From a virus, in IMG/VR virus record IMGVR_UViG_3300042890_006166, positions 62,670 through 126,669 of that record: a stretch of 64,000 bases of DNA; one strand, given 5' to 3'. The position numbers and the translations under genes are program-made. A model generated the notes under the pieces. That model did not search any database, was not told where the DNA came from, and was given only the letters and a program-made list of their open reading frames with translations. Shown one piece after another: positions 9,303 to 64,000 of the stretch (positions are counted from its first letter, which is position 1; each line of letters starts with the position of its first letter).

Positions 9303-9317
9303 TCTAATAAGAAACTT

Positions 9318-10614: not shown

Positions 10615-10619
10615 TTTTT

Positions 10620-10943: not shown

Positions 10944-10944
10944 C

Positions 10945-11277
10945 ATGATTGATTGTTTGGCAGAGATTAAGATTTTTCTAGCTAAATGTTCGGCCAAAGA
11001 AGCCAAAAAAAAATTTGATGGCGGGATTGACTTTTCCGTGATAGATATTGGTAAAATTATTCGGGATTTAGGTTACAATAACTTAGATTTAAGTAAAGAA
11101 TCTGAATTTATCATCAATTATACTATTCAAAGAAAAATAGACCAGGGGATATATAATACAAAGAACAACACCATAATGATCGTACACAAAAATCTTTCAA
11201 ATGATTTTATTTCTAATTTAAATTCTTTTTTAAAGGAATACGAAAATGAATTTGAATTTTCGATCGAGATGTTGTAA
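10945..11277 (+). CDS. hypothetical protein
   Basis: 110-aa ORF starting 1 nt after the previous stop. Confidence 0.65.
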   Translation: MIDCLAEIKIFLAKCSAKEAKKKFDGGIDFSVIDIGKIIRDLGYNNLDLSKESEFIINYTIQRKIDQGIYNTKNNTIMIVHKNLSNDFISNLNSFLKEYENEFEFSIEML

Positions 11278-11294
11278 AAATTTGTATGAATTAG

Positions 11295-18404: not shown

Positions 18405-18406
18405 GC

Positions 18407-21253: not shown

Positions 21254-21293
21254 TTGGTTTTAAAAAGATATATAGATGGTCTTTTTAAACCAA
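21254..21293 (+). promoter_or_regulatory. 14-bp RNA hairpin containing the late promoter GATATATA (21267-21274), upstream of the S1 gene
   Basis: TTGGTTTTAAAAAGA (21254-21268) pairs with TCTTTTTAAACCAA (21280-21293) with one bulged T; ends 5 nt before ATG 21299. Confidence 0.7.
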
Positions 21294-21298
21294 AAAAA

Positions 21299-24692: not shown

Positions 24693-25898
24693 ATGGAAAT
24701 TCTTCAAAAAATCGAATCTTGGAGGGGCAAGCCTGGACAAGCTTTTGGCTCTTATCTTTTTTTAATAAAGACCAATCCCATTTATGTCTCCGATTTGGAA
24801 TCGTTGACTAGTTTTTTAGATTCACATTATCACAAGGAATCCATTTCTATCCAACAGAGATTTTATCACGTTTGGTTCGATTTCTATGAAATCGAAACTT
24901 GTTTTCATTGTGGATCCCCTAGAAAATTTGCTAACATACCGAAGTTTTCTATAGATCGTTATGGAGAAAAACCAACTAACCCTGTGAATTACTACAAAAC
25001 ATGTATGTTAGAAAATTGTTTAAAGAAACACAACAAAATTTCGACCTCACAAAGTTTGTTAAAAAAATATGGGACTAGCAATCCTATGTTAGTACCTGGA
25101 GCGATGGATAAATTGAAAGAAAGCAACAGAAAAAAATATGGAACTGAATTTTTCACTTCTACGGAAGAATTCAAATCGAAAACTAAAAAAACTTTTCAAA
25201 AAAAATATGGGAGGCATCCAACAAGTTTGAAAGAAACACAAGACAAAAAAAGAAAAACAAATTTGGAAAAGTATGGATATGAGAATGCCTTGGATAATCC
25301 GGAAATTAAACAAAAATCGAAAGACACAAACAAACAAAAATATGGGGGGAATTCGAGTATGTGTTCAAACGAGATAAAAGAAAAATCGAAAGAAACTAAC
25401 CGTAAAAAACATGGTGTTGATTGGTATGTTCAAAGTGATGAATTTAAAATTAAATTCAAAGAGACTATGATGGAAAAATATGGGGTTGAGCAGGTGATGC
25501 ACTACACACCTTCTTTTGAAAAATCTCTGGATACATCTTACAAGAAAAAATTATTTGTATTTCCTTTTGGTAGAATCGAGAAAATTCAAGGATATGAATG
25601 TTTTGCCTTGAATGAATTGATTAGCTCAGATTATTTAGAGGAAGATATTATCGTCAACAACAAAGAAATTGAAAAATATACTGGAAAAATTTGGTACTTG
25701 GATTCTGAACAAAAAAAGAGAAAATACTACCCCGATATTTATTTGAAATCTGAAAATAAAATAATTGAAGTGAAATCTGATTATACGTACGATGCTGGAT
25801 ATACTATAAACATCAGAAAGAAAAAAGCCTGTATCAATCTTGGATTTTTATTCGAATTTTGGATTTATGACGAAAAGGGCAACAAAAAAATAAAGTAG
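24693..25898 (+). mobile_element. free-standing putative homing endonuclease gene (KKYG helical repeats + C-terminal PD-(D/E)XK nuclease)
   Basis: CxxC...CxxxC N-terminus, seven ~23-aa '[KE]KYG...' repeats, and 'YYPDIY...IIEVKS' nuclease motif; inserted between gp13 and gp25. Confidence 0.7.
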
Positions 25899-36990: not shown

Positions 36991-37692
36991 TTATTTAGGT
37001 TTTGTGTTTCCCGTTACGCCCACAAGTTTGTATTTCCATTGTTCGTATCTCCTAACTATTTCTTTCAGAATTTTGCTCCGAACAATATCCTCTTCGGCAA
37101 AACGAAATTCCCCAACTCCTGAAATTCCTCTGACTAGTTCTACAAAGATGGGTAAAGCTACCTTTTCATATGCTATATCGTGCTGTGTTATGTCTCCAGC
37201 TACTAAAACTTTAGATCCTTCTCCAACTCTAGAAATATAAAGCATGAGTTGTTTCATGTCGCAATTTTGGGCCTCGTCTAAAATCATCATGGATCTATCG
37301 AAGGTAGCACCTCTCATATAAGCCAAAGGTCTGAATTCGATAGTACGTTCTGAAATTAATTGTCCTAATTTTTCCTTTGAGATTATTTTCTCCATGGTGA
37401 TTAAAAAACTTTCCATGAAAGGACTAATTTTTTCGCTAACATCTCCTGGTAAACTACCTAGCTTTTCTCCTGATTCTTGAATTGGTTTTGTAAAAATTAT
37501 TCTTTCAATTTCTCCCCTTTGAACCATCTTTAAAGCTGCGTAGCATGCTGAAAAAGTTTTGGAAGAACCTGCAGGACCCCAACAAAATGTGATTGTATTT
37601 TTGAAAATGGTATCGCAATAATTTTTTTGTTTTTCTGTGAAATTTACATCGTAAAAATCTTTAGCTGTTAGTTTGCTTTTTGCTGTGGGCAT
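36991..37692 (-). CDS. phoH: PhoH family ATPase
   Basis: 'GPAGSSKTF', 'IIFTKPIQESGEKLGSLPG', 'PLAYMRGATF', 'ILDEAQN', 'GDITQHD' and 'DIVRS' motifs. Confidence 0.95.
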   Translation of the reverse strand: MPTAKSKLTAKDFYDVNFTEKQKNYCDTIFKNTITFCWGPAGSSKTFSACYAALKMVQRGEIERIIFTKPIQESGEKLGSLPGDVSEKISPFMESFLITMEKIISKEKLGQLISERTIEFRPLAYMRGATFDRSMMILDEAQNCDMKQLMLYISRVGEGSKVLVAGDITQHDIAYEKVALPIFVELVRGISGVGEFRFAEEDIVRSKILKEIVRRYEQWKYKLVGVTGNTKPK

Positions 37693-44447: not shown

Positions 44448-47400
44448 ATGAGCACACCAATCTCAACACCCATCCCTGGACCAATCTGTGGACCTGGCCC
44501 CAAACTATTTGACTCTAACTCATCTTTTGGTGTTCTAAGAACAAATCCAAAAATAACAGGAAATGTAAAAATTACTTTGGATTCCGAAGGAGAAGTTTGG
44601 TTAAATTCTATGGATGCAAATCCTACTTTGAGTGATCAGAAATACAAAAAATATCGGGTAAGCGGAGAACTTTCTTATGGAAAAGATATTCAAAAATTTT
44701 TCTCAGGAGGAAAAATCCAACGAATTTCTTTAAATCCTGATGTTATTTTCGAAGTTGGTAAATTTACCGACGGGGAAAATAAACCGGTAGAGAATTTTGC
44801 ATCCCAATATGATTTTTTTTATGGATCTGGAGCTTCAACTTTAGTCGATAGAAATTATGCTGAAAATTTCAAATTTTTTCAGCCTTTATGGTTGAAAGAT
44901 GAATTACCTGATTTTTTTGTCGTTTTTAAAGTTCCCGAACCTTTAAGCTACCCATATTCTACAAATCAAACACAAATTGTAGACGGTTCTCAATACAAGG
45001 TTATACAAGAAATTTCATCAACAGAAACCTTTTCGATTACTTATGGAGTTGACTTATTTGGGAATCCCATTGTTTATTCTGCCGGACAATTTTTTACCGG
45101 AAACACAGTTTATTCATCTTATAATATAATTTCTGGTACTGGTAAAGTAGTTCTAATGGATGAGTTGTTATTCCAGCCTCAAGTGGATGACGTTGATTCT
45201 TATTTCAATTCTAAAATACTTCCTTATGCTTCTGTTATTTCTACTTTTGATTTAAGGTCAAATACGAAGATCGGGAAATACATTCGATCAATTGTAAACA
45301 ATCCCTCTTTTTCACAATCACCAATCGACTTTTCTTATCAACTAAATGCCTATACATACTTCAACGGAATAGATATTCAAACCGGTGCCTTCACGAAGAA
45401 AGGTGAGCTTTTGTATGATTTTTTAATTTCAAACGAATCAACACCTCAAATCGATTTCGAAAATTATGTGACTGAAGGTTTTTCTAGAAATGGAATCATA
45501 GCTCCGAATCTTCTTAATTTAGAATTTCTTTTCGATGATCCAGATTCAAACCTTTACACCATAAACAGATATTTCGGTGCTTACGTGTCGAAAAACTGTT
45601 TGGGTAGTTTTAAAATGAATGGAAATTTCTTTTATACCTATAGGGATTCAGCTGGTAACAATAACCTACCAAAGCCATCTTTGAACAATGTTGGATTTTA
45701 TAATTCTACTCAAAATAATTTTCAAAGTAGCACTACCGGAGTTAGACTTTATTATGAAGGTGCCACTGGATGGATTCCAGGATCTTATGATGTTAATGTG
45801 GCAGATCCACAAAAATTATTTTATATCACTGATAAGTTTGATAGATTTTACAGTTTGAAAAGATTTGAAAATTACAATTCAAACACCAATTCCTGGATAG
45901 ACAACACCCCGGTAGAGGCACAATTTGGACCCTTCACTAACGGAACATTTTCAACCGGTGCTACTTCTGGGTGGAAAACTGGTAATCTAGTAATTCCAAA
46001 TCGTAGCGTTAATCTTTTAGATTTCACTGGTCCAGGGGAAAAAATAGGAGGATATAGCGGGATCTTACCAACTTCTGAAGGACATGCTAACATCGACATA
46101 GAATTTCTCAAGGTCTCTGATCCAAATAAACCTGTAACTTTTAAAGTGATTTGGCCTGGAGGTAGTCAGGGAAATCTGATAGAAAAATATGATCTAATTC
46201 AATCTGGAAAATTGGGAGGTACTGTTTTGGGATGGAAAGCTGGTTCTTCTTATAACTCCGGAAATATCAATTACTTCAATTTGTCACAGGGAACTACAAC
46301 TGATGTTGCCTTTTCATTTTGCTCTTGTGTTAACAATATAAGTTCAATTGTTTGGAATTCTGCCAATTCGAAAAATTCTTCTATAATTAGGGCTAAAAAT
46401 CCTGGACCTAATTCCAACACACAATTCAAAATTGGCGTTTTCTCCGATTATTCTTCTTTTGAAAATTCGTATGTAGGAATTTGGTCCAACACCTCTTCTT
46501 ATAATATCGGAGACATTGTTTCTTTCTTCGATTCCTACTTTCAAGCTTTGAATCCAATTAGTACACCCGCTTTAGGAAATCTAAATCCTGAACCAATTTC
46601 GAATCTTGACTGGTTACCTTATCAAACTTTCACTGAAGAAGGTTTTTTGAAAATTGCTGGTTTAGATGCCTCAGATTTATCTGGAATTGTTAATTTTAGA
46701 GGTGGTTCTAAAGAAATTAAATCTAGAGTAATTTTCTCTTCTGAAGAAAAAGATAAGATTGTCCCTGGTACATGGATAGAGGTAGAAAGTGGGCGTGGTG
46801 TAACCGGTTCTGTTTCAATGATAACTGAAATAACACCATATGTTGAGGATCCTATCTATGCCAATGGATCGGATTTGATTTCTGGGTTCAGAGGTTATGG
46901 TGAACTTCTGATTGCTCACCTCCAAGACAAGAATGCTGTTATCAATTTGGGATCTGATGGTAATTTCAATTTATTTGAAATTGTAAGTTTAGAAAGCGGT
47001 GTTTTTTCATTTTTTGATTTGAAAGATTTTGATTTTGATTTTTTATCTTCAACATATGGGATGACCCCAACCCCAGAATTTCACAGATATTTTCAATTAA
47101 TTCCAGGTCAATCTGGTCAAATTATAAATGGGGTGAAATATTTGGTGAGACAGGGACAGATTAGATACGAAACTACTAATTATGTGTCTGGAGAATCTTT
47201 CATAGGAACCACAACAGATTTTTTCACTGACGCTGGTTCTTCGACAACGGGATTTACTGCTGTTGTCCTTCCAGCTATTTTTACACAGGTTGGATGGGTG
47301 AATGATACTTATCCATACAACATGTCACAGATACAGGCAGAACAAAATTTGAATTCTTTTATTGGTTTCTATGGAATACAATCAATAACTAGTGTGAATC

Positions 47401-50065: not shown

Positions 50066-51523
50066 ATGCCAACACTAAACATTCTGACCCTAAATCAGGG
50101 TGATACACAAGAAGATATTCGCAATAAAGTAAATGCGAATTTTGACTCTTTGGTGTTAAATGGAGGTGGACCTCAAGGGGTTCAAGGCCCTCAAGGGGAT
50201 CAAGGACCAGTTGGATCTGCTGGATCTCAAGGGGATCCTGGTGAACAAGGTACCAGAGGAACTAAGTGGTTTGTTGAACCCTCCCAGCCATCTGGTGGAT
50301 CTGGAGACGAAATATTAGTGGGTGATTATTGGGTTGACACACTTAACGACAACTCAATTTATCAATTTGATAATTCAGGTTGGGTATCAACTGGTTACAC
50401 CTTGCAAACTTCTGGGATTTTCTCCACTCTTTCTGGAATCACCGGTCCAACAGCTGGTGCAAATGCTATTGTGTTAAACACGCCATTTCCAAATTTATAC
50501 ACTACGGTTTTATCTGATGCTATTTCTACACAATCTACTGCCAATCCTTCTTATTCAAAGTTATTAATTGCAACTGATTCGGCGAATGATTTTCCATTAT
50601 TGGAATTTGCTAAAACAAATGCTGTAGGGATTGGAACTCCATCGGATTACACAAGACATCCTCAATTCAGATGGATGAATCCAAACCAGCAGAATTATAA
50701 TCTTTTATTTTCTGTTCCTCAAGATTCTATGCAATTTAATTCTGGGGGAAATATGTCAATACAAAGTACCGGCGGGGATATTCAAATTACTGCCCCACAA
50801 GATATCGAGATCGATTCACAATCTCAAATTTTGATGTACGCTGCGAATCAAATTTTGTTACAGAGCGAACAGATTGTTTTTTCGTCCAATAATTTCCAGA
50901 TGAGTTCCAGTGCAATGTCAATTTTTACCCAGGTTTCGGTGAATGCAAACACAACTAATCCTGCTTTACAGATATCAAATTCTGGAACAGGAGGTGGACT
51001 TCAAGTATTTTCTAATTCAACCAGTTCCTCTACTAATATAGTTGATTTTCAGTCAGGCGGAGAAACTAAATTTTCTATTAATGGGCAGGGAAAGGTTTAT
51101 ATGAAACAAACTGCCAGTTCTGTTAAATCAATCAGTTCATCTTCTGACTTAACCATATCTTTTACCCAATATTGGTTGCTGAATACATCAACAGTTAACC
51201 ACGGAAACACTGTTCTTTTTGTTCCTCCTGTTTCTGGTGGTTCCAAAGGGTTGATGATCTCAATGGGAAGTTTTTCGGGTAGCTGGTCAAATTATCTACA
51301 AAATTACGAGTCTATTCAGCTTTCGATTTCAGTAGTGGACCTCGGTAACGCTATCAGATATTTAGCATTAGGAGATTCTAGCAACGCAATAATTGGTAGC
51401 GCTGTTGATTTTGGGTCTGGGACGGAACAAAGATTTATCAACTTAACTATTATTAGAAACAACTCAGCTACTAATTATCTTGTTTTTTACAATACATGTG
51501 GGGGACTTTGTGGTAAATTTTAA
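50066..51523 (+). CDS. collagen-containing tail fibre protein (paralogue A)
   Basis: 'QGDTQEDIRNKVNANFDSL' anchor, 11 Gly-X-Y triplets (GPQGVQ...), then a 'W...PS...GD.W.D' fibre module. Confidence 0.7.
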   Translation: MPTLNILTLNQGDTQEDIRNKVNANFDSLVLNGGGPQGVQGPQGDQGPVGSAGSQGDPGEQGTRGTKWFVEPSQPSGGSGDEILVGDYWVDTLNDNSIYQFDNSGWVSTGYTLQTSGIFSTLSGITGPTAGANAIVLNTPFPNLYTTVLSDAISTQSTANPSYSKLLIATDSANDFPLLEFAKTNAVGIGTPSDYTRHPQFRWMNPNQQNYNLLFSVPQDSMQFNSGGNMSIQSTGGDIQITAPQDIEIDSQSQILMYAANQILLQSEQIVFSSNNFQMSSSAMSIFTQVSVNANTTNPALQISNSGTGGGLQVFSNSTSSSTNIVDFQSGGETKFSINGQGKVYMKQTASSVKSISSSSDLTISFTQYWLLNTSTVNHGNTVLFVPPVSGGSKGLMISMGSFSGSWSNYLQNYESIQLSISVVDLGNAIRYLALGDSSNAIIGSAVDFGSGTEQRFINLTIIRNNSATNYLVFYNTCGGLCGKF

Positions 51524-51538: not shown

Positions 51539-53137
51539 ATGTTTAACACTAAATTCATTTTACCTGGTGATGATAAGGATCAAATTATCTCCAAAATAAA
51601 TTTCAATTTTCAACAAATTTTATTCAATGGGGTTGGATATGATGGACCAATTGGAAATGTAGGACCTACAGGAATTAGCGGAGAAGTTGGAGCAGATGGA
51701 ATATTTGGAGCCAACGGAAACCCCGCTACCCAATGGTTTTTTTCTGGCATAGAGCCTTCTCCTTCAGATTCAAGAAACGGTGATATCTGGGTAAATGAAG
51801 GACCTACTGGAGGGAGGGATATATTTGTTTTCGGACCTACCTCGTGGATTTATTCAGGAGAAACTCTTTTAGACGATTCAATTTTTTCTTTGGTTTTAGG
51901 AATAAGCGGTCCAGGACAATCTTCAGACAAAAATGCAATAGAAATATCAAATTATCCGGAAACCACAACTTTGGTTCTTTCTGACTCTCAATCTACTTTG
52001 AATGACGCCAATCCAAATTTGGCTAAATTATTAATTGCAACAGACGCAAGTCAGCAAAAATACCCATCTTTAACTTTTGATAAAACTTTTTATTCCGGAT
52101 CGAATCCTCCTTCTTTTTTGTGGGCAGGTACCGGTCCATCTTATGATTTCGTTTTTTCTTCCCCGCAAGAATTAAAAATCACTAGCGGGGCTACTGCCTC
52201 TTTCGGGCCAACAGGATCTTTATCCAGCATTTATTTTTTTCCTAATCAGTCTCTCAGATTAAACTCTGCACAAAACCCTGGACAAAATATAAATTTAAAT
52301 GCTCCAATTTCTGGTGGATATCTTTTGGCTTCAACCGCTAGCACGATCCAACTAACATCAAATAACATAAATTTAACCCCACAGTCTTTATCTTTTCAAT
52401 TTTCGGCGGGAACCGGTAGTTCTGTTAGTGGAACGGTAAACACTAACCCAATTCTTCGAATTACTAATTCATCCAGTGCTGGGTCTGGAGTGAAAGTAAA
52501 TCTAATAGGTTCATCTACCGATCCAATTGTAAGATTCACAAACAATCTTTCTTATAGGGTTTTCGAATCCAGGCCTGATGGATTAAATGTGGTAGGAGTT
52601 TCTGGACCATCTGGTTCAGCTTTTGGAAATTTTGTTAAAATGGTATCTTTTGCCAACAAAGTAAATACAAGTTCAACTTTCATTAGAAATAGTTTTACAA
52701 ACAATCTAATGTCGTTACCACTAACAGAACAATCTTCTGATTTAATATCGATTCAACCAGATCTAACAGGTCCAATATCATCTGATAATAGAATAGACAG
52801 AATTTATTTACAGATCGAAAATTTTTCAGGTATTTGGAGAGGACCAATTGCAGGAGGAAGAACCTTCGATATTTTTTTGAACAACAATACTTTGTGTTTT
52901 GGTGGTATTCGAAGTGTTTATCCGGGGCCTAGTGGTTTTACTTCAACATCCGTCCAAATTTTGGATACTGGAACTGGGATTAATGAAGGGTGTAGACACA
53001 TAAGACTCCAATTTTTATCCGAAGTTCAAATTGGCTACACTGCCTTTACAACATACGCAACCACTTCCGCTCCCCGTTGTGGATTTATCCCATATTCTAT
53101 AACTAGAACACCATCATCTCCAACTTCTCCAATTTAA
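51539..53137 (+). CDS. collagen-containing tail fibre protein (paralogue B)
   Basis: Same architecture as the upstream gene: 'PGDDKDQIISKINFNF', 10 Gly-X-Y triplets, 'QWFF...PSP...GDIWV', and shared 'TLVLSD...NP..AKLLIATD....P.L.F.K'. Confidence 0.7.
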   Translation: MFNTKFILPGDDKDQIISKINFNFQQILFNGVGYDGPIGNVGPTGISGEVGADGIFGANGNPATQWFFSGIEPSPSDSRNGDIWVNEGPTGGRDIFVFGPTSWIYSGETLLDDSIFSLVLGISGPGQSSDKNAIEISNYPETTTLVLSDSQSTLNDANPNLAKLLIATDASQQKYPSLTFDKTFYSGSNPPSFLWAGTGPSYDFVFSSPQELKITSGATASFGPTGSLSSIYFFPNQSLRLNSAQNPGQNINLNAPISGGYLLASTASTIQLTSNNINLTPQSLSFQFSAGTGSSVSGTVNTNPILRITNSSSAGSGVKVNLIGSSTDPIVRFTNNLSYRVFESRPDGLNVVGVSGPSGSAFGNFVKMVSFANKVNTSSTFIRNSFTNNLMSLPLTEQSSDLISIQPDLTGPISSDNRIDRIYLQIENFSGIWRGPIAGGRTFDIFLNNNTLCFGGIRSVYPGPSGFTSTSVQILDTGTGINEGCRHIRLQFLSEVQIGYTAFTTYATTSAPRCGFIPYSITRTPSSPTSPI

Positions 53138-54208: not shown

Positions 54209-56767
54209 ATGGCATACACCACAACATCTAAATATGTACAATTAACTCCTTATTTGGTTATGGAGTACATGTATGCTGCTCAGCCAAATCCAGAAACTTA
54301 TTTTGTAAACAACGGGGGAGGAAGCCCAACCGTAGGATTTAACAAATTAATCAACGGAATTATAGAATATAAAGGATCTCCAACCAACGAGGTCCAAATT
54401 TTCAATTTGGATGAAAATTATTCTATCACTCAGAACACCGCTTTAAACAATGTGGTTAAAACTTCTGAAAACTCTTTCATTCCATTGAACCCAAATTTGA
54501 TTGTACCTTACAATGATTTTAACCCAAAGCTAACCCCCACTGCAGATCTTGAAATTACATTCCCTTCGAATATTTCGGTGATTTATGACACCGTGAGATA
54601 TCACATTTTACAGGGATATAATTTGGAAAATATCGACGGACTGGTTTTATCTATTGCATTCTTAGATCAAGACGGATCCTACGTTACTTTTTCACAAATT
54701 GAATTGAGTTCAGGAACGGCTCAAAATTATACTTTGGATCCCAATCCTCTAACAATTGGGTCGAACATTTACGACAAGTATTTTCAGATCAACGTCCCTT
54801 CATTAGTGGACATGAACAACCAATATGCAGCGGCTAGTTTTTCGAACAAACCAGATACTTTGGCTGGAAAAACATCTCGTAGTGGAAGAGGATATGTAAC
54901 TGGTTCTCCAATGCGGATTTCTGTATGGCAAATAAATGATATAACCCAAGTTAACGGATATAACCAATATGGGGTTACTTTGTATGCAGCTCTTTCTTTA
55001 GAATCTGAAGATCCTTTTTCTAATGTTGGAGCCTATGTAGGTCCAGCCGAAAATGGAGATTATTTCGAATATTTTGCTACTGACAATGGAGGATTTATTG
55101 AAAATTTCATCCTATTTCAAAATTCTATTGGAAACCAATATTACGTAGACCACAAGGTTGAAACGGCGGAGCAAATCGGAGCGGCTTTCATTATTACCAA
55201 CAATTTTTCAACAATACAAACAACGGCATTTGATATTCCGTTGCTTTACAGACCTATTATTAGATATCCATCGGTGGCTGCTTCGTTTACGTTGCGTTAT
55301 ACTATGACACTAGTAAATTCTGTGGATCAATCTCGTTTGGTAAGAAATGCTTCTTTTACTTCCATCAATCCTGGTAGATATGGAGCTTTTATCGCTCCAT
55401 TGCAGCTTTCCGTTTTTCCGCAGACTCAGAAGATTTACAACAAATTGGCAAATCAATCCAATATCACTGTTCCATCTTCATCAATTGCTCCTATGGAAAT
55501 TGTGAAATATCAAAATGTGTTTGTTGAAAATAGCACGGTTAATTTAACAATGTCAAATCTAACTGTTACTGGAACAACAATAAGCCAAGCTGATGGTGGA
55601 GTAGCTCAAACTATTTCTTATGGATTGGGCCAAGCATACATAAGAATTTTACCATTCGATAATTATTACAAGTTCACTTTCTTTAAAAAGAATCCCAATG
55701 GAGTAACAGAGAAAATAGATTTAACTTCATCCGGGACTTTTAAACTTGTCTTCATAGACAATAAAAATAACAAATTGTTTGCCCCATCTATATCAGATAA
55801 AAACCTAGCCAATGCTTCTCAAGGTGAACTTGCTTTTAAAGTTGACCAAAGTTTGTCAGCCCAAATTTTAACATTTACAAATCGTAAATTTTATATTTCC
55901 AATCAGCCAGTGATAACCGAATCTTCACCAGTATCTGGGCAAAACTTATTCTCAAGATTTTCCAGTATTGGATCCAGATTGGCTAGAAGATCTTTATCTT
56001 CATCTGATTCTATTAGTGACATTCAGCTTTTAGCACGAAATTTTACATCACCAAATAACAATTCAGGAACGGCTAGAATCTCGAGTTCTTCTTCCTCAGT
56101 TTTATATTATGGAAATTGGTTGAAAGACAATGAGCCAACCCCCCCTGCAATTCCAGTTGAAACCGGTCCAACAGGTGGTGTAGAAGCCAGATCAGACCTT
56201 GCTTTAATTACGGGTCAAATTCCTCGTGAATCAACAATATTTTCCCCCTATTTAACATCAGTTCAAAGTTACTGGCAAAGAGCTCCAGTGGCAAGTGGTA
56301 GCACTTCTGGTACTTCTGGAACAACGACAACTGAAAATTCTTCGGTACAAACCCAAACTCTTAATGTTTTGGGAATTACTGCATTCAAGGCGGCAATAGC
56401 TTCTGACGTACAAGGTAAAATAGATTCCGGTTGGTCAAATCAACAAATTATTGATTATTTCCTTAATCCATCCGCTCTTGGGTACAAAATATATTCTGGA
56501 ATAACAAAGCAAATTTTCACCGACGCAGTTTCTGGTCTTTTTGCAAATTATGGAATATCTGGACAACTATTTATGGACCAGCTTGCAGCCTATGGTAACA
56601 CTGAAGGTGGATTGGACACAGGAGGTACTGCTGCTCAAGGTGGAAGTACCGGAAATCAAAGTGGATCTGATTCTGGAGGTCCAAATCGCCCAACTTTTCC
56701 AAGAGGAGGGGGAAGCTCAAATACCAGGCCTCCCTTGGGAGGTTTTAGACCAAGGGCTGGATTCTAG
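54209..56767 (+). CDS. putative virion structural protein
   Basis: 852-aa Asn/Ser/Thr-rich ORF with a Gly-rich low-complexity C-terminus. Confidence 0.7.
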   Translation: MAYTTTSKYVQLTPYLVMEYMYAAQPNPETYFVNNGGGSPTVGFNKLINGIIEYKGSPTNEVQIFNLDENYSITQNTALNNVVKTSENSFIPLNPNLIVPYNDFNPKLTPTADLEITFPSNISVIYDTVRYHILQGYNLENIDGLVLSIAFLDQDGSYVTFSQIELSSGTAQNYTLDPNPLTIGSNIYDKYFQINVPSLVDMNNQYAAASFSNKPDTLAGKTSRSGRGYVTGSPMRISVWQINDITQVNGYNQYGVTLYAALSLESEDPFSNVGAYVGPAENGDYFEYFATDNGGFIENFILFQNSIGNQYYVDHKVETAEQIGAAFIITNNFSTIQTTAFDIPLLYRPIIRYPSVAASFTLRYTMTLVNSVDQSRLVRNASFTSINPGRYGAFIAPLQLSVFPQTQKIYNKLANQSNITVPSSSIAPMEIVKYQNVFVENSTVNLTMSNLTVTGTTISQADGGVAQTISYGLGQAYIRILPFDNYYKFTFFKKNPNGVTEKIDLTSSGTFKLVFIDNKNNKLFAPSISDKNLANASQGELAFKVDQSLSAQILTFTNRKFYISNQPVITESSPVSGQNLFSRFSSIGSRLARRSLSSSDSISDIQLLARNFTSPNNNSGTARISSSSSSVLYYGNWLKDNEPTPPAIPVETGPTGGVEARSDLALITGQIPRESTIFSPYLTSVQSYWQRAPVASGSTSGTSGTTTTENSSVQTQTLNVLGITAFKAAIASDVQGKIDSGWSNQQIIDYFLNPSALGYKIYSGITKQIFTDAVSGLFANYGISGQLFMDQLAAYGNTEGGLDTGGTAAQGGSTGNQSGSDSGGPNRPTFPRGGGSSNTRPPLGGFRPRAGF

Positions 56768-56784
56768 AAAATTAACAATTTAAG

Positions 56785-57345
56785 ATGGCAATTTTAAACG
56801 CAAGATCCAATTCATTTTACTTCAACTTTCCCAAAGGGTTTTTTCCACCTAGTGTAGAAAATCGATGGATTGATTATTTAAAAAAACAGCCAACCCCTTA
56901 CGACACGATCACCTCCTTCATGAATTCCAGTATTCAGTCGGTGGGGTTCCCTACTATGAGTACAAATCTGGTATCACAGACGAAGAACTTGGGAAAACAA
57001 ATTAACTATCAAAGCGCAACCCCAGTCCAAGATTTATTTACCAGAGATTTCGATGTTTCGTTTAGAATAGGTGAGGGATTTGTAAATTATTTTATCATGT
57101 TGGAAACTGTTTTAGATAAACTAGCTTTCCAGAATGATGACCTATTTACTCCCGTTTTACCTCTTAGAATTTTGAACAACGAAGGAGGAGTAATTGTCTC
57201 GGTTGTATTTAAAGAAGTCAACCTAACGGGGATAAACGGAATCACCTTGAATTACACCCAAAATGCACCTAGTGTGAACACATTCACTGTTTCTTTTAAA
57301 TGTAACTTCATGGAGTTAGACATGGAAGTACAGAAAAGAAACTAG
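56785..57345 (+). CDS. tail tube terminator/completion protein, T4 gp3-like (tube fold)
   Basis: 186 aa; order 'IQSVGFP...FDVSF....NYFIM...LRILNNEG.VIVSVVF....TGINGITLNY....TFTVSFK' parallels gp3/gp19. Confidence 0.55.
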   Translation: MAILNARSNSFYFNFPKGFFPPSVENRWIDYLKKQPTPYDTITSFMNSSIQSVGFPTMSTNLVSQTKNLGKQINYQSATPVQDLFTRDFDVSFRIGEGFVNYFIMLETVLDKLAFQNDDLFTPVLPLRILNNEGGVIVSVVFKEVNLTGINGITLNYTQNAPSVNTFTVSFKCNFMELDMEVQKRN

Positions 57346-57352
57346 ATATATA
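57345..57352 (+). promoter_or_regulatory. putative phage late promoter GATATATA
   Basis: Exact motif overlapping the upstream TAG, 21 nt before ATG 57374. Confidence 0.6.
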
Positions 57353-57373
57353 AGAAAGAAAAAACACAATATT

Positions 57374-57619
57374 ATGAGAAAATTTTCTGAACTGACGAAG
57401 ATGAATGAAATGAAATATGGTCAACCCATGTACGGAGAAAATGACATGAAACAGCACATGAAGAATTTGCTGGTTGCCGCTTCTGGAAACGACCAAAGAG
57501 TTTTGAACGACGTGGTAGACTGTCTCTCCGACGAGCAGATGAAAAAGTGCTACGATAATCTTGTCAAAGTTTACAACTACACGGGGAAAGTAGGACAAGC
57601 CGTTGAACCCAACCTTTAA
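57374..57619 (+). CDS. small hypothetical protein, putative internal head protein
   Basis: 'MRKFSELTKMNE' leader motif; has its own late promoter. Confidence 0.65.
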   Translation: MRKFSELTKMNEMKYGQPMYGENDMKQHMKNLLVAASGNDQRVLNDVVDCLSDEQMKKCYDNLVKVYNYTGKVGQAVEPNL

Positions 57620-57633
57620 GGCGGTGAACATAA

Positions 57634-57963
57634 ATGTTAGGCCTCATCGAAATAAAATACGGCAAGGATAGTGCAGGTAAAATTCTTTCCTTAGCTATCA
57701 ATCCGTCTTCTGTAGGATCTATTTCCACGGGAGCTACCGGCTTTTTCATTTTTCTAGACTCTGTTAACACAACAGTTGTCCAACCTAATATCAACAATTT
57801 TTCAACTAAGCTGTCCTTCTTTGGGACATCTTTTGCTGATGCCCAAGCCATGGAGCAAGCCTGGCTGGCAGCCACCGACAATCTTTTAATAGAGGCCCAA
57901 ATTGTGACTTTGGATTTTCAATCACAGGGTTATATTTTTTCACAAACAATAGTTCAGGCGTAG
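57634..57963 (+). CDS. hypothetical protein, apparent paralogue of the N-terminal domain of the downstream collagen-like protein
   Basis: 109 aa; shares I-x-I-x-Y, G(F/V)(F/Y)(I/L)(F/Y), a late helix and 'LDF...G..IFS' with residues 1-105 of the next ORF. Confidence 0.7.
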   Translation: MLGLIEIKYGKDSAGKILSLAINPSSVGSISTGATGFFIFLDSVNTTVVQPNINNFSTKLSFFGTSFADAQAMEQAWLAATDNLLIEAQIVTLDFQSQGYIFSQTIVQA

Positions 57964-60900
57964 GTGAAAAAGATTGTAATACAATATATTTCTGGTTCAC
58001 AAACACTGGCCACTTCTTTCGAGTTAGACACACTCTCGGAAATTATTGCGGTCGAAAACGGGGTTTACCTTTACTTCACTACTGTTTACAATTCTGGACC
58101 TCTTACAGCTTCTAGATTTTATTATGGAACTGTAGTTTATATTACTAAAACCGGTCAAGGATATGACCTATATCAACAATGTATTCAGGCTATAGGTGAT
58201 GTAGTTACTGATCCAATCTCTAACGAAGGAATTTTAGATTTTACCTGGGACCCAGGTGTAACCGTGATTTTCTCTAACATGAGTGGGGATTCTAGCGGTG
58301 GTGGAACCGGAGGATCTAGCTCGGGAAGTTCTGGTACTTCAGGCAGCTCTGGTACTTCTGGATCTACCGGAACCAGTGGATCTTCTGGAACAACAGGAAG
58401 TTCTGGTACTTCTGGAACCAGTGGATCATCAGGAACTTCTGGATCTGATGGTACAAGAGGAACCTCTGGAACTTCTGGCTCATCGGGATCCTCTGGAACT
58501 ACTGGATCTTCTGGAACATCTGGTTCATCTGGAACTTCTGGATCAGATGGAACATCCGGAACTTCTGGCTCATCGGGATCCTCTGGAACTACTGGATCTT
58601 CTGGAACATCTGGTTCATCTGGAACTTCTGGATCAGATGGAACATCCGGAACTTCTGGCTCATCTGGATCATCCGGAACTACTGGTTCTTCAGGAACATC
58701 TGGTTCATCTGGAACTTCTGGATCAGATGGAACATCCGGAACTTCTGGCTCATCTGGATCATCCGGAACTACTGGTTCTTCAGGAACATCAGGTTCATCT
58801 GGAACTTCTGGATCAGATGGAACCTCTGGAACTTCTGGCTCATCTGGATCATCCGGAACTACTGGTTCTTCAGGTACATCAGGTTCTTCTGGAACTTCTG
58901 GATCAGATGGAACCTCTGGAACTTCTGGCTCATCGGGATCCTCTGGAACTACTGGTTCTTCAGGTACATCAGGTTCATCGGGTACTTCTGGTTCTGATGG
59001 GACTGCTGGAACATCGGGATCCTCCGGAACTACTGGATCTTCTGGAACATCTGGTTCATCTGGAACTTCTGGATCAGATGGGACTGCTGGAACATCGGGA
59101 TCCTCTGGAACTACTGGATCCTCTGGATCATCTGGATCATCTGGAACTTCTGGATCAGATGGAACATCCGGAACTTCTGGCTCTTCCGGATCCTCTGGAA
59201 CTACTGGTTCTTCAGGTACATCAGGTTCATCGGGAACTTCTGGATCAGATGGGACTTCAGGAACTTCTGGTTCATCGGGATCCTCTGGAACTACTGGTTC
59301 TTCAGGTACATCAGGAACTTCTGGATCAGATGGAACCTCTGGAACTTCTGGCTCATCGGGATCCTCTGGAACTACTGGTTCTTCAGGTACATCAGGAACT
59401 TCTGGATCAGATGGAACCTCTGGAACTTCTGGCTCATCGGGATCCTCTGGAACTACTGGTTCTTCAGGTACATCAGGTTCATCGGGTACTTCTGGTTCTG
59501 ATGGGACTGCTGGAACATCGGGATCCTCCGGAACTACTGGATCTTCTGGAACATCTGGTTCATCTGGAACTTCTGGATCAGATGGGACTGCTGGAACATC
59601 GGGATCCTCTGGAACTACCGGATCTTCGGGTACATCAGGATCATCAGGGACTTCTGGATCAGATGGAACATCCGGAACTTCTGGCTCATCGGGATCATCT
59701 GGAACTAGTGGATCTTCTGGAACATCTGGTTCATCTGGAACTTCTGGATCAGATGGAACTTCCGGAACTTCTGGTTCTTCCGGATCCTCCGGTACTACCG
59801 GATCTTCTGGTTCATCTGGTTCATCTGGAACTTCTGGATCAGATGGGACTGCTGGAACATCGGGATCCTCTGGAACTAGTGGATCTTCTGGAACATCTGG
59901 TTCATCTGGAACTTCTGGATCAGATGGGACTGCTGGAACATCGGGATCCTCTGGAACTACTGGATCCTCTGGAACATCTGGTTCATCTGGAACTTCTGGA
60001 TCAGATGGGACTGCTGGAACATCGGGATCTTCTGGAACTACTGGTTCTTCTGGAACATCTGGTTCATCTGGAACTTCTGGATCAGATGGAACATCCGGAA
60101 CTTCTGGCTCATCGGGATCATCTGGAACTAGTGGATCTTCTGGAACATCTGGTTCATCTGGAACTTCTGGATCAGATGGGACTGCTGGAACATCGGGATC
60201 CTCTGGAACTACTGGATCCTCTGGAACATCTGGTTCATCTGGAACTTCTGGATCAGATGGGACTGCTGGAACATCGGGATCTTCTGGAACTACCGGTTCT
60301 TCTGGAACATCTGGTTCATCTGGAACTTCTGGATCAGATGGGACTGCTGGAACATCGGGATCCTCTGGAACTTCTGGTTTAGATGGAACTTTTGGAACTT
60401 CTGGAACTTCTGGTTTCGACGGAACTTCTGGAACTTCTGGTTCTGACGGTACTTCTGGAACATCGGGTTCTTCTGGAACTTCTGGTTTAGATGGAACTTC
60501 TGGAACTTCTGGTTCTGACGGTACCTCCGGGACATCGGGTTCTTCTGGAACTACTGGTTCTTCTGGAACTTCTGGATTCAATGGAACCTCTGGAACTTCT
60601 GGTCTAGATGGGACTTTTGGAACTTCAGGAACCTCTGGATCCGATGGAACAGCAGGGACTTCTGGAACCGATGGAACATCAGGAACATCGGGTTCTTCTG
60701 GAACAACTGGATCATCTGGTACTTCTGGTTTGAATGGAACCTTTGGAACCTCCGGATCTTCAGGTACCACCGGAACTTCTGGAACTTCGGGTTCGTCCGG
60801 TACTACCGGAACATCGGGTTCCTCTGGAACATCTGGTATAAATGGTTCTTTTGGAACCAGCGGAACTTCTGGGTCAAGTGGGACCAGCGGGGCCGGAATC

Positions 60901-63900
60901 ATGAATTATTATGCTTCTTATAGTGATTCTACTACTCAAACAGTAACAGCGGAAGATACTCCAACCATAATAACTTACAATACGGTTGAAATAGAAAATG
61001 GATTTTCTTTGGTCAGTAATTCAAGGGTTACTCCAACTTATTCTGGGATTTATGAATTTTCTTTTTCTCCACAAGTTCAAAAATCACAAGGAACAAATTG
61101 CCTGATGAATTTTTGGCTGAGAAAAAATGGAACAGACATTATTAGAACAGATTCATACATTGACCTAGTTTCAAATTCTGTCATCCAACTTCCTTTTGTA
61201 AGCATAATAGTTGAGCTTTTACAGGGAGATTATTTGGAATTAATATTTGCGGCATCCACTGAATTTGGCGAGATTGTTGCCTTTCCTGCTATTACTACTC
61301 CCTATGTTGCTCCAGCAGCTCCTTCTGTAATTGTTAATATTAAAAATATAGGAGTAGCAGCAGCTGCCTATACATCAACCTCAGGAACAAGCGGTACTTC
61401 AGGTTTAAATGGTACTTCTGGAACTTCTGGATCTTCTGGGACTTCTGGATCATCTGGTACCTCTGGTGGAACAGGAACATCCGGAACTTCAGGTTCTTCT
61501 GGATCATCTGGAACATCCGGGTTTTCTGGTTCATCTGGGACTTCTGGATCTTCCGGAACTTCTGGAGGAACAGGTTCATCTGGTACTTCTGGATCTTCCG
61601 GAACCTCCGGTGGAGCAGGTTCTTCTGGAACTTCTGGTTCTTCAGGAACCTCGGGCTCATCCGGATCAAGTGGATCCTCCGGATCATCGGGATCTTCCGG
61701 AACCTCCGGTGGAGCAGGTTCTTCCGGAACTTCTGGTTCTTCTGGAACTTCTGGTTCTTCTGGATCAAGTGGATCATCTGGATCGTCGGGTTCTTCTGGA
61801 ACTTCCGGAGGAACAGGTTCTTCCGGAACCTCAGGTTCTTCTGGATCAAGTGGATCCTCTGGATCATCAGGTTCTTCCGGAACATCCGGAGGATCAGGTT
61901 CTTCTGGAACCTCAGGTTCATCCGGATCGAGTGGATCCTCTGGATCATCAGGTTCTTCCGGAACATCCGGAGGTGCAGGTTCTTCCGGGACTTCTGGCTC
62001 TTCAGGAACTTCTGGATCAAGTGGATCTTCTGGATCATCAGGTTCTTCGGGTACTTCCGGGGGAGCAGGTTCTTCCGGGACTTCTGGCTCTTCAGGAACT
62101 TCAGGTTCTTCTGGATCAAGTGGATCATCTGGATCATCGGGTTCTTCGGGTACTTCCGGGGGAGCAGGTTCTTCCGGGACTTCTGGCTCTTCAGGAACTT
62201 CAGGTTCTTCTGGATCAAGTGGATCATCTGGATCATCGGGTTCTTCTGGAACATCTGGTGGAACAGGTTCTTCCGGAACCTCAGGTTCTTCTGGATCAAG
62301 TGGATCCTCTGGATCATCGGGTTCTTCTGGAACCTCTGGAGGAGCAGGTTCTTCTGGAACCTCGGGTTCATCCGGATCGAGTGGATCATCTGGATCATCA
62401 GGTTCTTCCGGAACATCCGGAGGTGCAGGTTCTTCCGGAACTTCAGGTTCATCCGGATCAAGTGGATCTTCTGGATCAAGTGGATCCTCTGGATCATCAG
62501 GTTCTTCCGGAACATCCGGAGGTGCAGGTTCTTCTGGAACTTCAGGTTCATCCGGATCAAGTGGATCTTCTGGATCAAGTGGATCCTCTGGATCATCAGG
62601 TTCTTCCGGAACTTCTGGAGGAACAGGTTCTTCTGGAACTTCTGGATCAAGTGGATCTTCTGGATCAAGTGGATCCTCTGGATCATCAGGTTCTTCTGGA
62701 ACTTCTGGAGGAACAGGTTCTTCTGGAACTTCTGGATCAAGTGGATCCTCTGGATCATCAGGTTCTTCCGGAACATCCGGAGGATCGGGTTCTTCTGGAA
62801 CCTCAGGTTCATCCGGATCGAGTGGATCCTCTGGATCATCAGGTTCTTCCGGAACATCCGGAGGTGCAGGTTCTTCTGGAACCTCAGGTTCATCCGGATC
62901 AAGTGGATCTTCTGGATCGTCGGGTACCTCCGGAGGATCAGGTTCTTCTGGAACATCAGGTTCATCCGGATCAAGTGGATCCTCTGGATCATCAGGTTCT
63001 TCCGGAACATCCGGAGGTGCAGGTTCTTCTGGAACTTCTGGTTCTTCTGGATCAAGTGGATCTTCTGGATCATCAGGTTCTTCCGGAACCTCTGGAGGAA
63101 CAGGTTCTTCTGGAACTTCAGGTTCATCCGGATCAAGTGGATCTTCTGGATCAAGTGGATCCTCTGGATCATCAGGTTCTTCCGGAACTTCTGGAGGAAC
63201 AGGTTCTTCTGGAACTTCTGGATCAAGTGGATCCTCTGGATCATCAGGTTCTTCCGGAACATCCGGAGGATCGGGTTCTTCTGGAACCTCAGGTTCATCC
63301 GGATCGAGTGGATCCTCTGGATCGTCTGGATCGTCGGGTACCTCCGGAGGTGCAGGTTCTTCTGGAACCTCAGGTTCATCCGGATCGAGTGGATCCTCTG
63401 GATCGTCTGGATCGTCGGGTACCTCCGGAGGTGCAGGTTCTTCTGGAACTTCTGGTTCTTCTGGATCAAGTGGATCTTCTGGATCATCAGGTTCTTCCGG
63501 AACCTCTGGAGGAACAGGTTCTTCTGGAACCTCAGGTTCATCCGGATCAAGTGGATCTTCTGGATCGTCTGGATCGTCGGGTACCTCCGGAGGATCAGGT
63601 TCTTCTGGAACCTCAGGTTCATCCGGATCGAGTGGATCATCTGGATCATCAGGTTCTTCAGGAACATCCGGAGGTGCAGGTTCTTCCGGAACCTCGGGTT
63701 CTTCTGGATCAAGTGGATCCTCTGGATCATCAGGTTCTTCCGGAACTTCTGGAGGAACAGGTTCTTCTGGAACTTCTGGATCAAGTGGATCCTCTGGATC
63801 ATCAGGTTCTTCCGGAACATCCGGAGGATCGGGTTCTTCCGGAACCTCGGGTTCTTCTGGATCAAGTGGATCATCTGGATCATCAGGTTCTTCCGGAACA

Positions 63901-64000
63901 TCCGGAGGTGCAGGTTCTTCCGGAACCTCGGGTTCTTCTGGATCAAGTGGATCTTCTGGATCGTCTGGATCGTCGGGTACCTCCGGAGGAACAGGTTCTT
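57964..64000 (+). CDS. giant proline-free Ser/Thr collagen-like fibre protein with an internal C1q/TNF-like domain (3'-truncated, >2012 aa; absent from the ORF track)
   Basis: GTG at 57964, frame open to the window end: 120-aa N-domain, (Gly-X-Y)286, ~160-aa C1q-like domain (YASYSDSTTQT...SGIYEFSF...FWLRKNG...LLQGDYLEL), then (Gly-X-Y)>=290. Confidence 0.9.
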   Translation, partial: MKKIVIQYISGSQTLATSFELDTLSEIIAVENGVYLYFTTVYNSGPLTASRFYYGTVVYITKTGQGYDLYQQCIQAIGDVVTDPISNEGILDFTWDPGVTVIFSNMSGDSSGGGTGGSSSGSSGTSGSSGTSGSTGTSGSSGTTGSSGTSGTSGSSGTSGSDGTRGTSGTSGSSGSSGTTGSSGTSGSSGTSGSDGTSGTSGSSGSSGTTGSSGTSGSSGTSGSDGTSGTSGSSGSSGTTGSSGTSGSSGTSGSDGTSGTSGSSGSSGTTGSSGTSGSSGTSGSDGTSGTSGSSGSSGTTGSSGTSGSSGTSGSDGTSGTSGSSGSSGTTGSSGTSGSSGTSGSDGTAGTSGSSGTTGSSGTSGSSGTSGSDGTAGTSGSSGTTGSSGSSGSSGTSGSDGTSGTSGSSGSSGTTGSSGTSGSSGTSGSDGTSGTSGSSGSSGTTGSSGTSGTSGSDGTSGTSGSSGSSGTTGSSGTSGTSGSDGTSGTSGSSGSSGTTGSSGTSGSSGTSGSDGTAGTSGSSGTTGSSGTSGSSGTSGSDGTAGTSGSSGTTGSSGTSGSSGTSGSDGTSGTSGSSGSSGTSGSSGTSGSSGTSGSDGTSGTSGSSGSSGTTGSSGSSGSSGTSGSDGTAGTSGSSGTSGSSGTSGSSGTSGSDGTAGTSGSSGTTGSSGTSGSSGTSGSDGTAGTSGSSGTTGSSGTSGSSGTSGSDGTSGTSGSSGSSGTSGSSGTSGSSGTSGSDGTAGTSGSSGTTGSSGTSGSSGTSGSDGTAGTSGSSGTTGSSGTSGSSGTSGSDGTAGTSGSSGTSGLDGTFGTSGTSGFDGTSGTSGSDGTSGTSGSSGTSGLDGTSGTSGSDGTSGTSGSSGTTGSSGTSGFNGTSGTSGLDGTFGTSGTSGSDGTAGTSGTDGTSGTSGSSGTTGSSGTSGLNGTFGTSGSSGTTGTSGTSGSSGTTGTSGSSGTSGINGSFGTSGTSGSSGTSGAGIMNYYASYSDSTTQTVTAEDTPTIITYNTVEIENGFSLVSNSRVTPTYSGIYEFSFSPQVQKSQGTNCLMNFWLRKNGTDIIRTDSYIDLVSNSVIQLPFVSIIVELLQGDYLELIFAASTEFGEIVAFPAITTPYVAPAAPSVIVNIKNIGVAAAAYTSTSGTSGTSGLNGTSGTSGSSGTSGSSGTSGGTGTSGTSGSSGSSGTSGFSGSSGTSGSSGTSGGTGSSGTSGSSGTSGGAGSSGTSGSSGTSGSSGSSGSSGSSGSSGTSGGAGSSGTSGSSGTSGSSGSSGSSGSSGSSGTSGGTGSSGTSGSSGSSGSSGSSGSSGTSGGSGSSGTSGSSGSSGSSGSSGSSGTSGGAGSSGTSGSSGTSGSSGSSGSSGSSGTSGGAGSSGTSGSSGTSGSSGSSGSSGSSGSSGTSGGAGSSGTSGSSGTSGSSGSSGSSGSSGSSGTSGGTGSSGTSGSSGSSGSSGSSGSSGTSGGAGSSGTSGSSGSSGSSGSSGSSGTSGGAGSSGTSGSSGSSGSSGSSGSSGSSGSSGTSGGAGSSGTSGSSGSSGSSGSSGSSGSSGSSGTSGGTGSSGTSGSSGSSGSSGSSGSSGSSGTSGGTGSSGTSGSSGSSGSSGSSGTSGGSGSSGTSGSSGSSGSSGSSGSSGTSGGAGSSGTSGSSGSSGSSGSSGTSGGSGSSGTSGSSGSSGSSGSSGSSGTSGGAGSSGTSGSSGSSGSSGSSGSSGTSGGTGSSGTSGSSGSSGSSGSSGSSGSSGSSGTSGGTGSSGTSGSSGSSGSSGSSGTSGGSGSSGTSGSSGSSGSSGSSGSSGTSGGAGSSGTSGSSGSSGSSGSSGSSGTSGGAGSSGTSGSSGSSGSSGSSGSSGTSGGTGSSGTSGSSGSSGSSGSSGSSGTSGGSGSSGTSGSSGSSGSSGSSGSSGTSGGAGSSGTSGSSGSSGSSGSSGSSGTSGGTGSSGTSGSSGSSGSSGSSGTSGGSGSSGTSGSSGSSGSSGSSGSSGTSGGAGSSGTSGSSGSSGSSGSSGSSGTSGGTGS
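58324..60897 (+). repeat. Gly-X-Y block 1 (286 triplets; 81-90-nt higher-order units marked by GSD)
   Basis: GGN every 9 nt from 58324 to 60889; the antisense ORF shows Pro at every third residue, confirming no frameshift. Confidence 0.95.
61384..64000 (+). repeat. Gly-X-Y block 2 (>=290 triplets; GSS/GTS/GG[ATS], uncharged)
   Basis: GGN every 9 nt from 61384 to 63994; runs off the window. Confidence 0.95.

Follow-up and report, generated by a model that had tools for sequence, protein, structure and literature searches.

What kind of protein repeats glycine at every third residue for hundreds of triplets and fills the positions in between almost entirely with serine and threonine? The question is raised by the last open reading frame (ORF) of a 64,000-nt stretch of viral DNA (the window, positions 62,670 to 126,669 of the IMG/VR virus record IMGVR_UViG_3300042890_006166). 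This ORF (57964-64000, + strand; coordinates are those of the window unless stated otherwise) is stop-free in frame 1 from a GTG start at 57964 to the final base of the window, and its translated part (57964-63999) comprises 2012 residues. Taken together, the evidence makes it reasonably probable that the ORF encodes an accessory fibre, of three-chain collagen type and possibly O-glycosylated, of a T4-like jumbo phage of lakes.

The predicted protein is composed of a non-repetitive N-terminal domain, a first block of Gly-X-Y triplets, an internal globular knob and a second triplet block (Table 1). An earlier note, made from the letters alone, had described two Pro-free blocks of 286 and at least 290 triplets dominated by Ser and Thr, and these numbers were reproduced by translation; the giant Pro-free Ser/Thr Gly-X-Y protein is confirmed. 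Position X of block 1 is occupied by Thr (156), Ser (122) or other residues (8), and position Y by Ser (210), Asp (31), Thr (25), Ala (11) or others (9). The corresponding counts in block 2 are 184 Ser, 74 Thr and 31 Gly at X, and 264 Ser, 14 Ala and 11 Thr at Y. Ser and Thr make up 82-97% at each X and Y position of both blocks; besides them there are Asp, Ala and Gly, with occasional Leu, Phe, Asn, Ile and Arg. Pro is absent from the 1730 repeat residues, and all 11 Pro of the protein lie in its two globular parts. Lys is likewise absent from both blocks, and charged residues are confined to block 1 (31 Asp and 1 Arg), with none in block 2.

The match of the protein to the Pfam Collagen family (PF01391) scores 655.8 bits (E 1.8e-202), far above the cut-off of 27.2; this score rewards Gly periodicity and is not independent of the triplet count. 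Both stalks also have a super-period of ~9-11 triplets, which spans 27-30 residues in block 1, where it is marked by Asp in GSDGT, and 24-33 residues in block 2, where it is marked by Gly-Gly in SGG(A/T/S)G. Both are close in length to the repeat of a 10/3 collagen helix, which is 30 residues. The earlier note took the ORF to run off the window. It is indeed open at its 3' end, but the window end is also the end of the 126,669-bp IMG/VR-type viral contig (~46% complete according to CheckV), so the opening is a true assembly break and not a window edge. The contig ends inside block 2, and the triplet count of this block is therefore a lower bound.

Is the register of the repeats maintained by selection, or could it be a by-product of low-complexity DNA? 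Within the fibre repeats, all four Gly codons are used in genome-like ratios and Ser is encoded by both of its codon families. The diversity of Gly codons was measured over the 576 triplets of the fibre gene together with 941 triplets of two paralogues (1517 in three genes), and is 0.00 per site at codon positions 1 and 2 and ~0.5 at position 3. A non-Gly codon occurs at none of the 1517 every-third positions, with synonymous sites nearly saturated. Tandem-repeat analysis resolved the arrays into units of 81-90 nt with matches of only 82-84%, and 88-97% of the 127-mers within the arrays are unique within the contig; units that have diverged to this degree show that the arrays are not an assembler loop. 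The codon pattern is strong evidence for purifying selection that holds Gly at each third residue, in a collagen-type register. The same constraint fixes the reading frame, which runs on into two conserved globular domains.

The second line of evidence is the knob. Its AlphaFold2 (AF2) model, built from a 27-sequence alignment, has a predicted local distance difference test score (pLDDT) of 94.5 and a predicted template-modelling score (pTM) of 0.86. The best Foldseek match in the PDB is the C-terminal domain of BclA (3tyj, E 5.8e-8), and the central-spike knob of phage phi812, C1q-like proteins and TNF ligands all match at probability 1.00. There are 399 structural matches at E <= 0.001, and the top rows listed also include ExsFA/BxpB. 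The knob has no Pfam family at E <= 1 and no meaningful sequence match in the PDB, so that the relationship is one of fold only, at 12-18% identity. With BclA, C1q and TNF as its best structural matches, the pairing of the repeats with a BclA/C1q/TNF-like domain, already proposed in the earlier note, is borne out. As modelled for the monomer, a domain of the trimeric BclA/C1q/TNF fold class stands in line with the repeats. In contrast to the C-terminal caps that are usual for the class of C1q, TNF and the BclA C-terminal domain, it lies within the chain, flanked on either side by collagen repeats without a stop.

Homologues of the knob are numerous (4346 representatives), and some phage records annotate relatives of it as C1q-like or cerebellin-like. 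Among the best 150 homologues, 22 carry at least 20 Gly-X-Y triplets, and 18 of these 22 have 12-30% Pro at X/Y; the domain is thus a habitual partner of ordinary collagen-like sequence. Three of the same 150 (P0012-14) share the Pro-free Ser/Thr composition, and two of these (P0012 and P0013) also share the order Gly-X-Y, knob, Gly-X-Y, followed by fibre repeats, with C-terminal tails that resemble endosialidase-chaperone (S74) domains by eye only. The register breaks listed for P0012-14 are all in-frame single residues at a Gly position (Ala, and once Ser), small residues that would fit the tightly packed core of a helix. In many other homologues the knob lies mid-protein in giant beta-rich proteins resembling tail fibres.

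Comparison with related phages suggests that the fibre is modular. We gathered 14 syntenic loci by searching with the 852-aa protein encoded upstream. The N-terminal (anchor) domain is combined with Gly-X-Y stalks in L004 (78% identity) and L013 (61%); the L004 layout is anchor, 22 triplets, a different knob of 111 aa and at least 46 triplets up to the contig end. In P0158, a complete protein of 247 aa, the anchor domain (63% identity) is directly joined to a small beta domain, and in L001-type phages it occurs as a stand-alone protein of 108 aa (39% identity). Both the anchor domain and the 109-aa protein encoded next to it are missing from L006- and L012-type phages. Phage fibres are usually organised in this way, with a proximal module that is kept and distal parts that are exchanged, and the pattern marks this fibre as accessory.

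The anchor domain itself is modelled by AF2 with a pLDDT of 89, and has few recognizable relatives. Foldseek against the PDB returned nothing at E <= 0.001, VIA-align gave only PH/PTB-like rows with Z ~5, which is within noise, and the matches in BFVD were confined to uncharacterised viral proteins of ~100 aa with a similar fold. In the ESM Atlas only unnamed viral clusters below 0.9 were found. A tblastn search of the phage collection with this domain gave no match, and one fragment was recovered as a near-length homologue.

Judged by its genes, the source is an uncultured T4-like tailed jumbo phage of freshwater lakes and not a giant virus, the setting that the earlier note had implied; baseplate, tail-fibre and T4-type portal genes (Table 1) are those of a tailed T4-like phage. 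Among cultured phages, tblastn placed nearest the jumbo phages that infect the Flavobacteriia Tenacibaculum, Flavobacterium and Chryseobacterium, together with Sphingomonas phage PAU and Prevotella megaphages, and these relatives indicate that the host probably belongs to the Bacteroidota. At least half of the sampled words of positions 56000-64000 are present in 20 sequencing runs from 17 freshwater/lake studies. The fibre gene is the final gene of the baseplate/tail-fibre module, and several proteins of structural size (750-1860 aa) are encoded further upstream in the window. The other half of the contig contains, besides the T4-type portal genes, a weak match to a neck protein.

This gene order bears on where the fibres would be attached. 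The earlier note saw in them a hairy, glycocalyx-like virion coat that might slow sinking and shield the particle, which can be read as fibres that clothe the capsid. Hair-like capsid protrusions do occur on the distant relatives PTm1 and PTm5 (PMC13282480, PMC8643167); moreover, the anchor is small (~108 aa) and also occurs as a free protein, as do capsid decoration proteins. The fibre gene, however, comes after baseplate and tail-fibre genes and not after head genes, the relatives that bear the knob have tail-fibre architectures, and comparisons with the PDB and BFVD found no link between the anchor fold and any known decoration protein. We consider a capsid coat unlikely, and a position on the tail or baseplate more probable.

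Table 1. Coordinates of the fibre ORF, its parts and other features of the locus and contig
Feature	Position	Strand	Remarks
N-terminal domain	window 57964..58323	+	Residues 1-120, non-repetitive; presumed virion-attachment (anchor) module
Collagen-like block 1	window 58324..60897	+	Residues 121-978; 286 uninterrupted Gly-(Thr/Ser)-(Ser/Asp/Thr/Ala) triplets, Pro-free
Internal knob	window 60898..61383	+	Residues 979-1140, 162 aa; BclA/C1q/TNF-like jelly roll; presumed trimerisation/registration and ligand-binding module
Collagen-like block 2	window 61384..64000	+	Residue 1141 to end; at least 290 Gly-(Ser/Thr/Gly)-Ser triplets and one partial, Pro-free
5'-open paralogue	contig 1-4017		At least 380 Gly-Ser/Thr-Ser triplets and 199-aa tail, Pro-free
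Gene C, complete paralogue	contig 4017-12557		2847 aa: 124-aa head, 561 unbroken triplets, NVAxG-type head repeats, C-terminal Peptidase_S74 (E 4e-11)
GT4 glycosyltransferase	contig 13870-15033	-	Beside paralogous fibres
GT4 glycosyltransferase	contig 16927-17985	+	Beside paralogous fibres
TibC-type heptosyltransferase	contig 17982-19163	+	394 aa; matches TibC (PDB 4rap), E 5.1e-54 over residues 44-387
Late-promoter-like motif GATATATA	window 57345..57352	+	Upstream of three-gene cassette (81-aa ORF, 109-aa ORF, fibre gene)
81-aa ORF	window 57374..57619	+	Cassette gene 1; from ORF list; 81-residue gene at same position in L015 and L018
109-aa ORF	window 57634..57963	+	Abuts fibre gene (TAG then GTG); co-occurs with N-terminal-domain gene in relatives
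Baseplate hub OB domain	window 17736-18404		Upstream of fibre gene
Baseplate wedge protein	window 26331-28061		Upstream of fibre gene
Tail-fibre proteins	window 50066-51523 and 51539-53137		Upstream of fibre gene
Two adjacent full-length T4-type portal (gp20) genes	L021:6075-7700 and L021:7703-9310		Pfam Portal_T4, E ~1e-59 to 1e-61
Protein with several ribosomal-protein-S1 RNA-binding domains	window 21254-22462	+	402 aa; Pfam S1 E 9e-20; among baseplate genes, directly after GATATATA
Asparagine synthase	window 3910-5346	+	E 9e-37; within structural region
PhoH-like ATPase	window 36991-37692	-	E 1e-57; within structural region
Homing-endonuclease-like DUF7487 protein	window 24693-25898	+	Within structural region

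The proposed accessory fibre has two paralogues at the other end of the contig, and Pro-free Gly-Ser/Thr fibres amount to ~15% of its length. The architecture of gene C indicates that giant Pro-free stalks occur between unique flanks in bona fide tail fibres. The TibC homologue, which like the two GT4 enzymes is encoded directly downstream of these paralogues, looks intact, with the catalytic Asp110 (GD motif) and the iron-finger Cys339/342/358/370 (CxxC, WCPR, FECT) retained. The roles of these residues are known from TibC, a cytoplasmic enzyme that transfers heptose to the Ser but not the Thr of repetitive adhesins (PMC4358343). The arrangement of a fibre followed by TibC recurs in the relatives G001 and G005; the G001 fibre has the same GSS/GTS/GTRGTS repeats, and the TibC and 852-aa proteins of G001 are only 58-66% identical to those of the source phage. 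TibC and collagen genes are both present in G000, G001 and G005 and both absent from G002-G004, a co-occurrence that is not independent evidence given that the genes are adjacent and the records fragmentary. A kinase of the PfkB family, encoded at contig 45321-46319, would fit the role of a heptose-7-phosphate kinase without being specific to this function.

The O-glycosylation put forward in the earlier note is plausible in the light of the TibC-type Ser heptosyltransferase and the two GT4 enzymes beside the paralogous fibres. The GT25-like enzyme named there was not recovered: PF01755 (GT25) matches nothing in the contig at E <= 1, and no glycosyltransferase was found in Pfam scans of window ORFs of at least 200 aa. 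A Mimivirus-type collagen with a GT25/lysyl-hydroxylase system does not fit this locus, which has no PF01755 match and no Lys in its repeats and belongs to a tailed phage.

We hypothesize that the 120-aa N-terminal domain docks the fibre protein on the virion and that the internal BclA/C1q-like knob keeps three parallel chains in register. Both Gly-Ser/Thr blocks would then zip outward from the knob into collagen-type triple helices of ~0.25 micrometre each (block 1 would measure ~245 nm as a triple helix, at ~0.29 nm per residue). With neither Pro nor appreciable charge, the stalks would probably be stabilised and coated by O-linked sugars, the helices relying on hydration as well as on these sugars. 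The cytoplasmic TibC-type heptosyltransferase of the phage could add sugars to Ser, and the neighbouring GT4 enzymes could extend them. Such a fibre would act as a long flexible tether that widens the capture radius and increases contact with host surface glycans, with binding parts that might comprise the knob and a distal domain beyond the contig end. A stricter proposal, that the stalks are true imino-free triple helices held by dense O-heptosylation (plus further sugars) of Ser through the TibC-type enzyme, is offered only tentatively and must be called doubtful.

Several points weigh against this mechanism. To our knowledge, no imino-free triple helix of such length has been demonstrated, and the known substrates of TibC are beta-helical autotransporters, not collagen. 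In C1q-type knobs, which are normally C-terminal, the chain enters and leaves on the same face, so that a knob within the chain would imply a hairpin or kink, and the end-to-end reach of the fibre may fall below its contour length. The glycosyltransferase cluster lies ~100 kb from the fibre gene, beside the paralogues instead, and the C-terminus of the fibre lies beyond the contig end, which hides any receptor-binding tip or S74 chaperone. Neither repeat block is spanned by any Logan contig from three runs, many alternative joints are present, and the interior length is unconfirmed. The imino acids and charged pairs that stabilise other collagen-like proteins are absent or nearly so from these stalks, with 0 Pro in 1730 residues; known prokaryotic collagen-like proteins have 19-31% Pro in X together with charged pairs (PMC8968730, PMC3368898). 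Finally, the triple helix is a prediction from sequence.

A different picture of the same blocks is that of disordered, mucin-like spacers, heavily O-glycosylated in the manner of a bottle brush, which link folded knobs. Repeats without Pro and almost without charge are compatible with such a spacer, Gly/Ser-rich sequence is a classic flexible linker, and an enzyme that glycosylates Ser is encoded on the contig. A disordered spacer, however, needs no Gly at every third residue, yet the 1517 triplets of the three genes contain no non-Gly codon, the relatives break the register with Ala or Ser only, and the knob family is habitually attached to collagen repeats that do contain Pro. For these reasons we regard a disordered spacer as distinctly unlikely, and retain the collagen-type stalk as the preferred interpretation.

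It is also conceivable that the gene is real and its giant size in part an assembly artefact, with tandem units mis-counted or mis-joined by short-read assemblers. The contig stops inside block 2, and the contigs of the relatives L004, L013 and G001 likewise break within such repeats. Exact repeats of up to 224 nt occur within block 1, so that the count of 286 triplets may be off by some units, and the lack of block-spanning Logan contigs and the alternative joints noted above point in the same direction. The flanks, on the other hand, are well supported by a comparison of the fibre region with Logan contigs from three lake studies. The junction of anchor and block 1 is covered by one contig (57000-58488 or 57000-58466) with zero differences in two runs, and is covered with 3 differences in the third. 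The segment from the end of block 1 through the knob to the start of block 2 (60495-61620) is found as the same 1126-nt contig with zero differences in all three runs. The reproduction of these junctions shows that the in-frame order stalk-knob-stalk is real. Moreover, the units of the arrays have diverged, whereas a looping artefact gives identical copies, and the complete paralogue C has its 561 triplets between unique flanks. Inflation by assembly may thus affect the exact number of triplets, whereas the gene itself and the order of magnitude of its size stand; as an explanation of the giant size it appears improbable. A protein of 131 aa encoded on a 715-bp ENA contig (P0157) has 99% identity to the anchor domain and departs from it precisely at the start of the repeats; an artefact of the short contig or of the frame where the repeats begin is the probable cause, although a variant allele is conceivable.

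Least probable by far is a non-collagen polyproline-II/polyglycine-II (PGII) assembly comparable to the snow-flea antifreeze protein or the T4-like gp38 PGII sandwich, which would share the Gly-X-X periodicity with small residues and could draw on the Gly-Gly at regular 24-33-residue spacing in block 2, but which is built of short helices with turns or loops, whereas here 286 and 290 triplets run without a turn-like break, a point already made in the earlier note, and a three-fold knob stands in line with the repeats.

Some features of the surroundings accompany the proposed collagen-type fibre. The motif GATATATA has nine copies in the window (5338 to 57345), all on the + strand, against an expectation of 1.9 +/- 1.45, and none of 100 shuffles reached nine. 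Several copies sit just 5' of structural genes, a placement that would fit a late-promoter element. In tblastn searches the 109-aa ORF of the cassette has counterparts with 79% identity in L004, 64% identity in L013 and 53% identity in loci of the L001 type; it gave no match in loci of the L006 and L012 types, from which the fibre gene is missing as well. The ORF has no Pfam family, and its interpretation as a paralogue of the anchor was unsupported (BLASTP E 0.12). The L001-type relatives carry, between a 186-aa gene and the 109-aa gene, a protein of 1654 aa rich in Cys and Thr/Pro linkers (L001:13094-18055), and the source phage has nothing at this position. This is another sign that the locus is a hotspot for the exchange of fibre-like genes.

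We also considered whether the contig could close on itself, with the fibre ORF continuing into the 5'-open Gly-X-Y ORF at the contig start, and rejected this possibility. The two ends share no 31-mers, their DNA identity is ~73% and their repeat types differ. Relatives have a 219-aa gene, NTP_transferase, a RuBisCO-like gene and gp32 after this locus, none of which is present on the contig, and the collinear 230-kb relative G001 continues for ~110 kb past the fibre locus. The RuBisCO-like gene of L016 (L016:2691-3926) encodes 411 aa with a Pfam RuBisCO_large match, and lies four genes downstream of the fibre homologue, between NTP_transferase and gp32.

How does the fibre compare with known systems? 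Collagen-like phage fibres are already known (EPclA and P-SSM2 orf028), and BclA provides a precedent for the combination of collagen, C1q-like domain and glycan; the fibre described here departs from these in having no imino acids, almost no charge, a greater length, an internal knob and a linked TibC-type enzyme. In the Thr-rich cuticle collagen of Riftia and in Gly-Pro-Thr(Gal) peptides, sugars on Thr replace hydroxyproline as the helix stabiliser. These systems keep Pro in X and depend on glycosylation in the animal secretory pathway, unlike the phage fibre. BclA, of the exosporium nap of Bacillus anthracis and Bacillus cereus, has Pro-containing repeats, a far shorter stalk and a C-terminal knob, in contrast to the Pro-free phage fibre with at least 576 triplets, an internal knob flanked by collagen and 12-14% identity to BclA. 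The two have in common a Thr-rich Gly-X-Y stalk and a C1q/TNF-like jelly roll (PDB 3tyj, 1wck, 2r6q), and the BclA stalk is O-glycosylated (PMC8968730).

Among phage proteins, the tail fibres EPclA and EPclB of Escherichia coli O157:H7 prophages likewise have a Pfam Collagen domain between trimerising domains (PMC3368898), and EPclA was found to be a triple-helical rod by circular dichroism and electron microscopy (Ghosh et al. 2012, PMC3368898). The collagen part of EPclA comprises 111 residues (~30 nm) with many charged pairs and with Pro at close to half of the X positions, and EPclA is not glycosylated (PMC3368898); the present fibre has at least 1730 collagen residues, none of them Pro and very few of them charged. 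In the T4-like cyanophage P-SSM2, the Gly-X-Y candidate orf028 was read as a tail fibre (PMC1079782); its repeats include Pro, and neither an internal C1q-like knob nor a linked TibC-type enzyme was described there. For 'bacteriophage collagen' in general, the same paper cites Smith et al. (1998). The occurrence of a TibC homologue beside Ser-rich repeat proteins parallels the pairs TibC-TibA and Aah-AIDA-I, which have Ser-rich repetitive substrates (PMC4358343); the principle proposed is hyperglycosylation of Ser in structural proteins built of repeats. The substrates of TibC and Aah are beta-helical adhesins of Proteobacteria, whereas we infer a collagen-like phage fibre as the acceptor. We searched the literature for Pro-free Ser/Thr collagens of phages and for TibC homologues in phages, and found no paper on either.

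The stability of collagen is usually credited to proline or hydroxyproline, to charge pairs, or to glycosylated Thr next to Pro. If the proposed fibre is real in this form, a rod of Gly, Ser and Thr only, hundreds of triplets long, would show whether a triple helix can be kept together by sugars alone, and would offer a simple, fully polar recombinant scaffold. If a TibC-type enzyme acts on the fibres of its own phage, protein heptosylation would no longer be confined to proteobacterial adhesins but would also occur in viruses; a mycobacteriophage precedent for virion glycosylation is attributed to Freeman et al. (2023) in PMC12619734. Should the imino-free heptosylated helix prove true, it would represent a new chemical class of collagen, in the form of glycan-coated threads of at least half a micrometre that are longer than the virion. 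The long tail fibre of T4 measures ~145 nm. Fibres of 0.25-0.5 micrometre would be several-fold longer, and the encounter radius and adsorption estimated for abundant lake phages would change accordingly.

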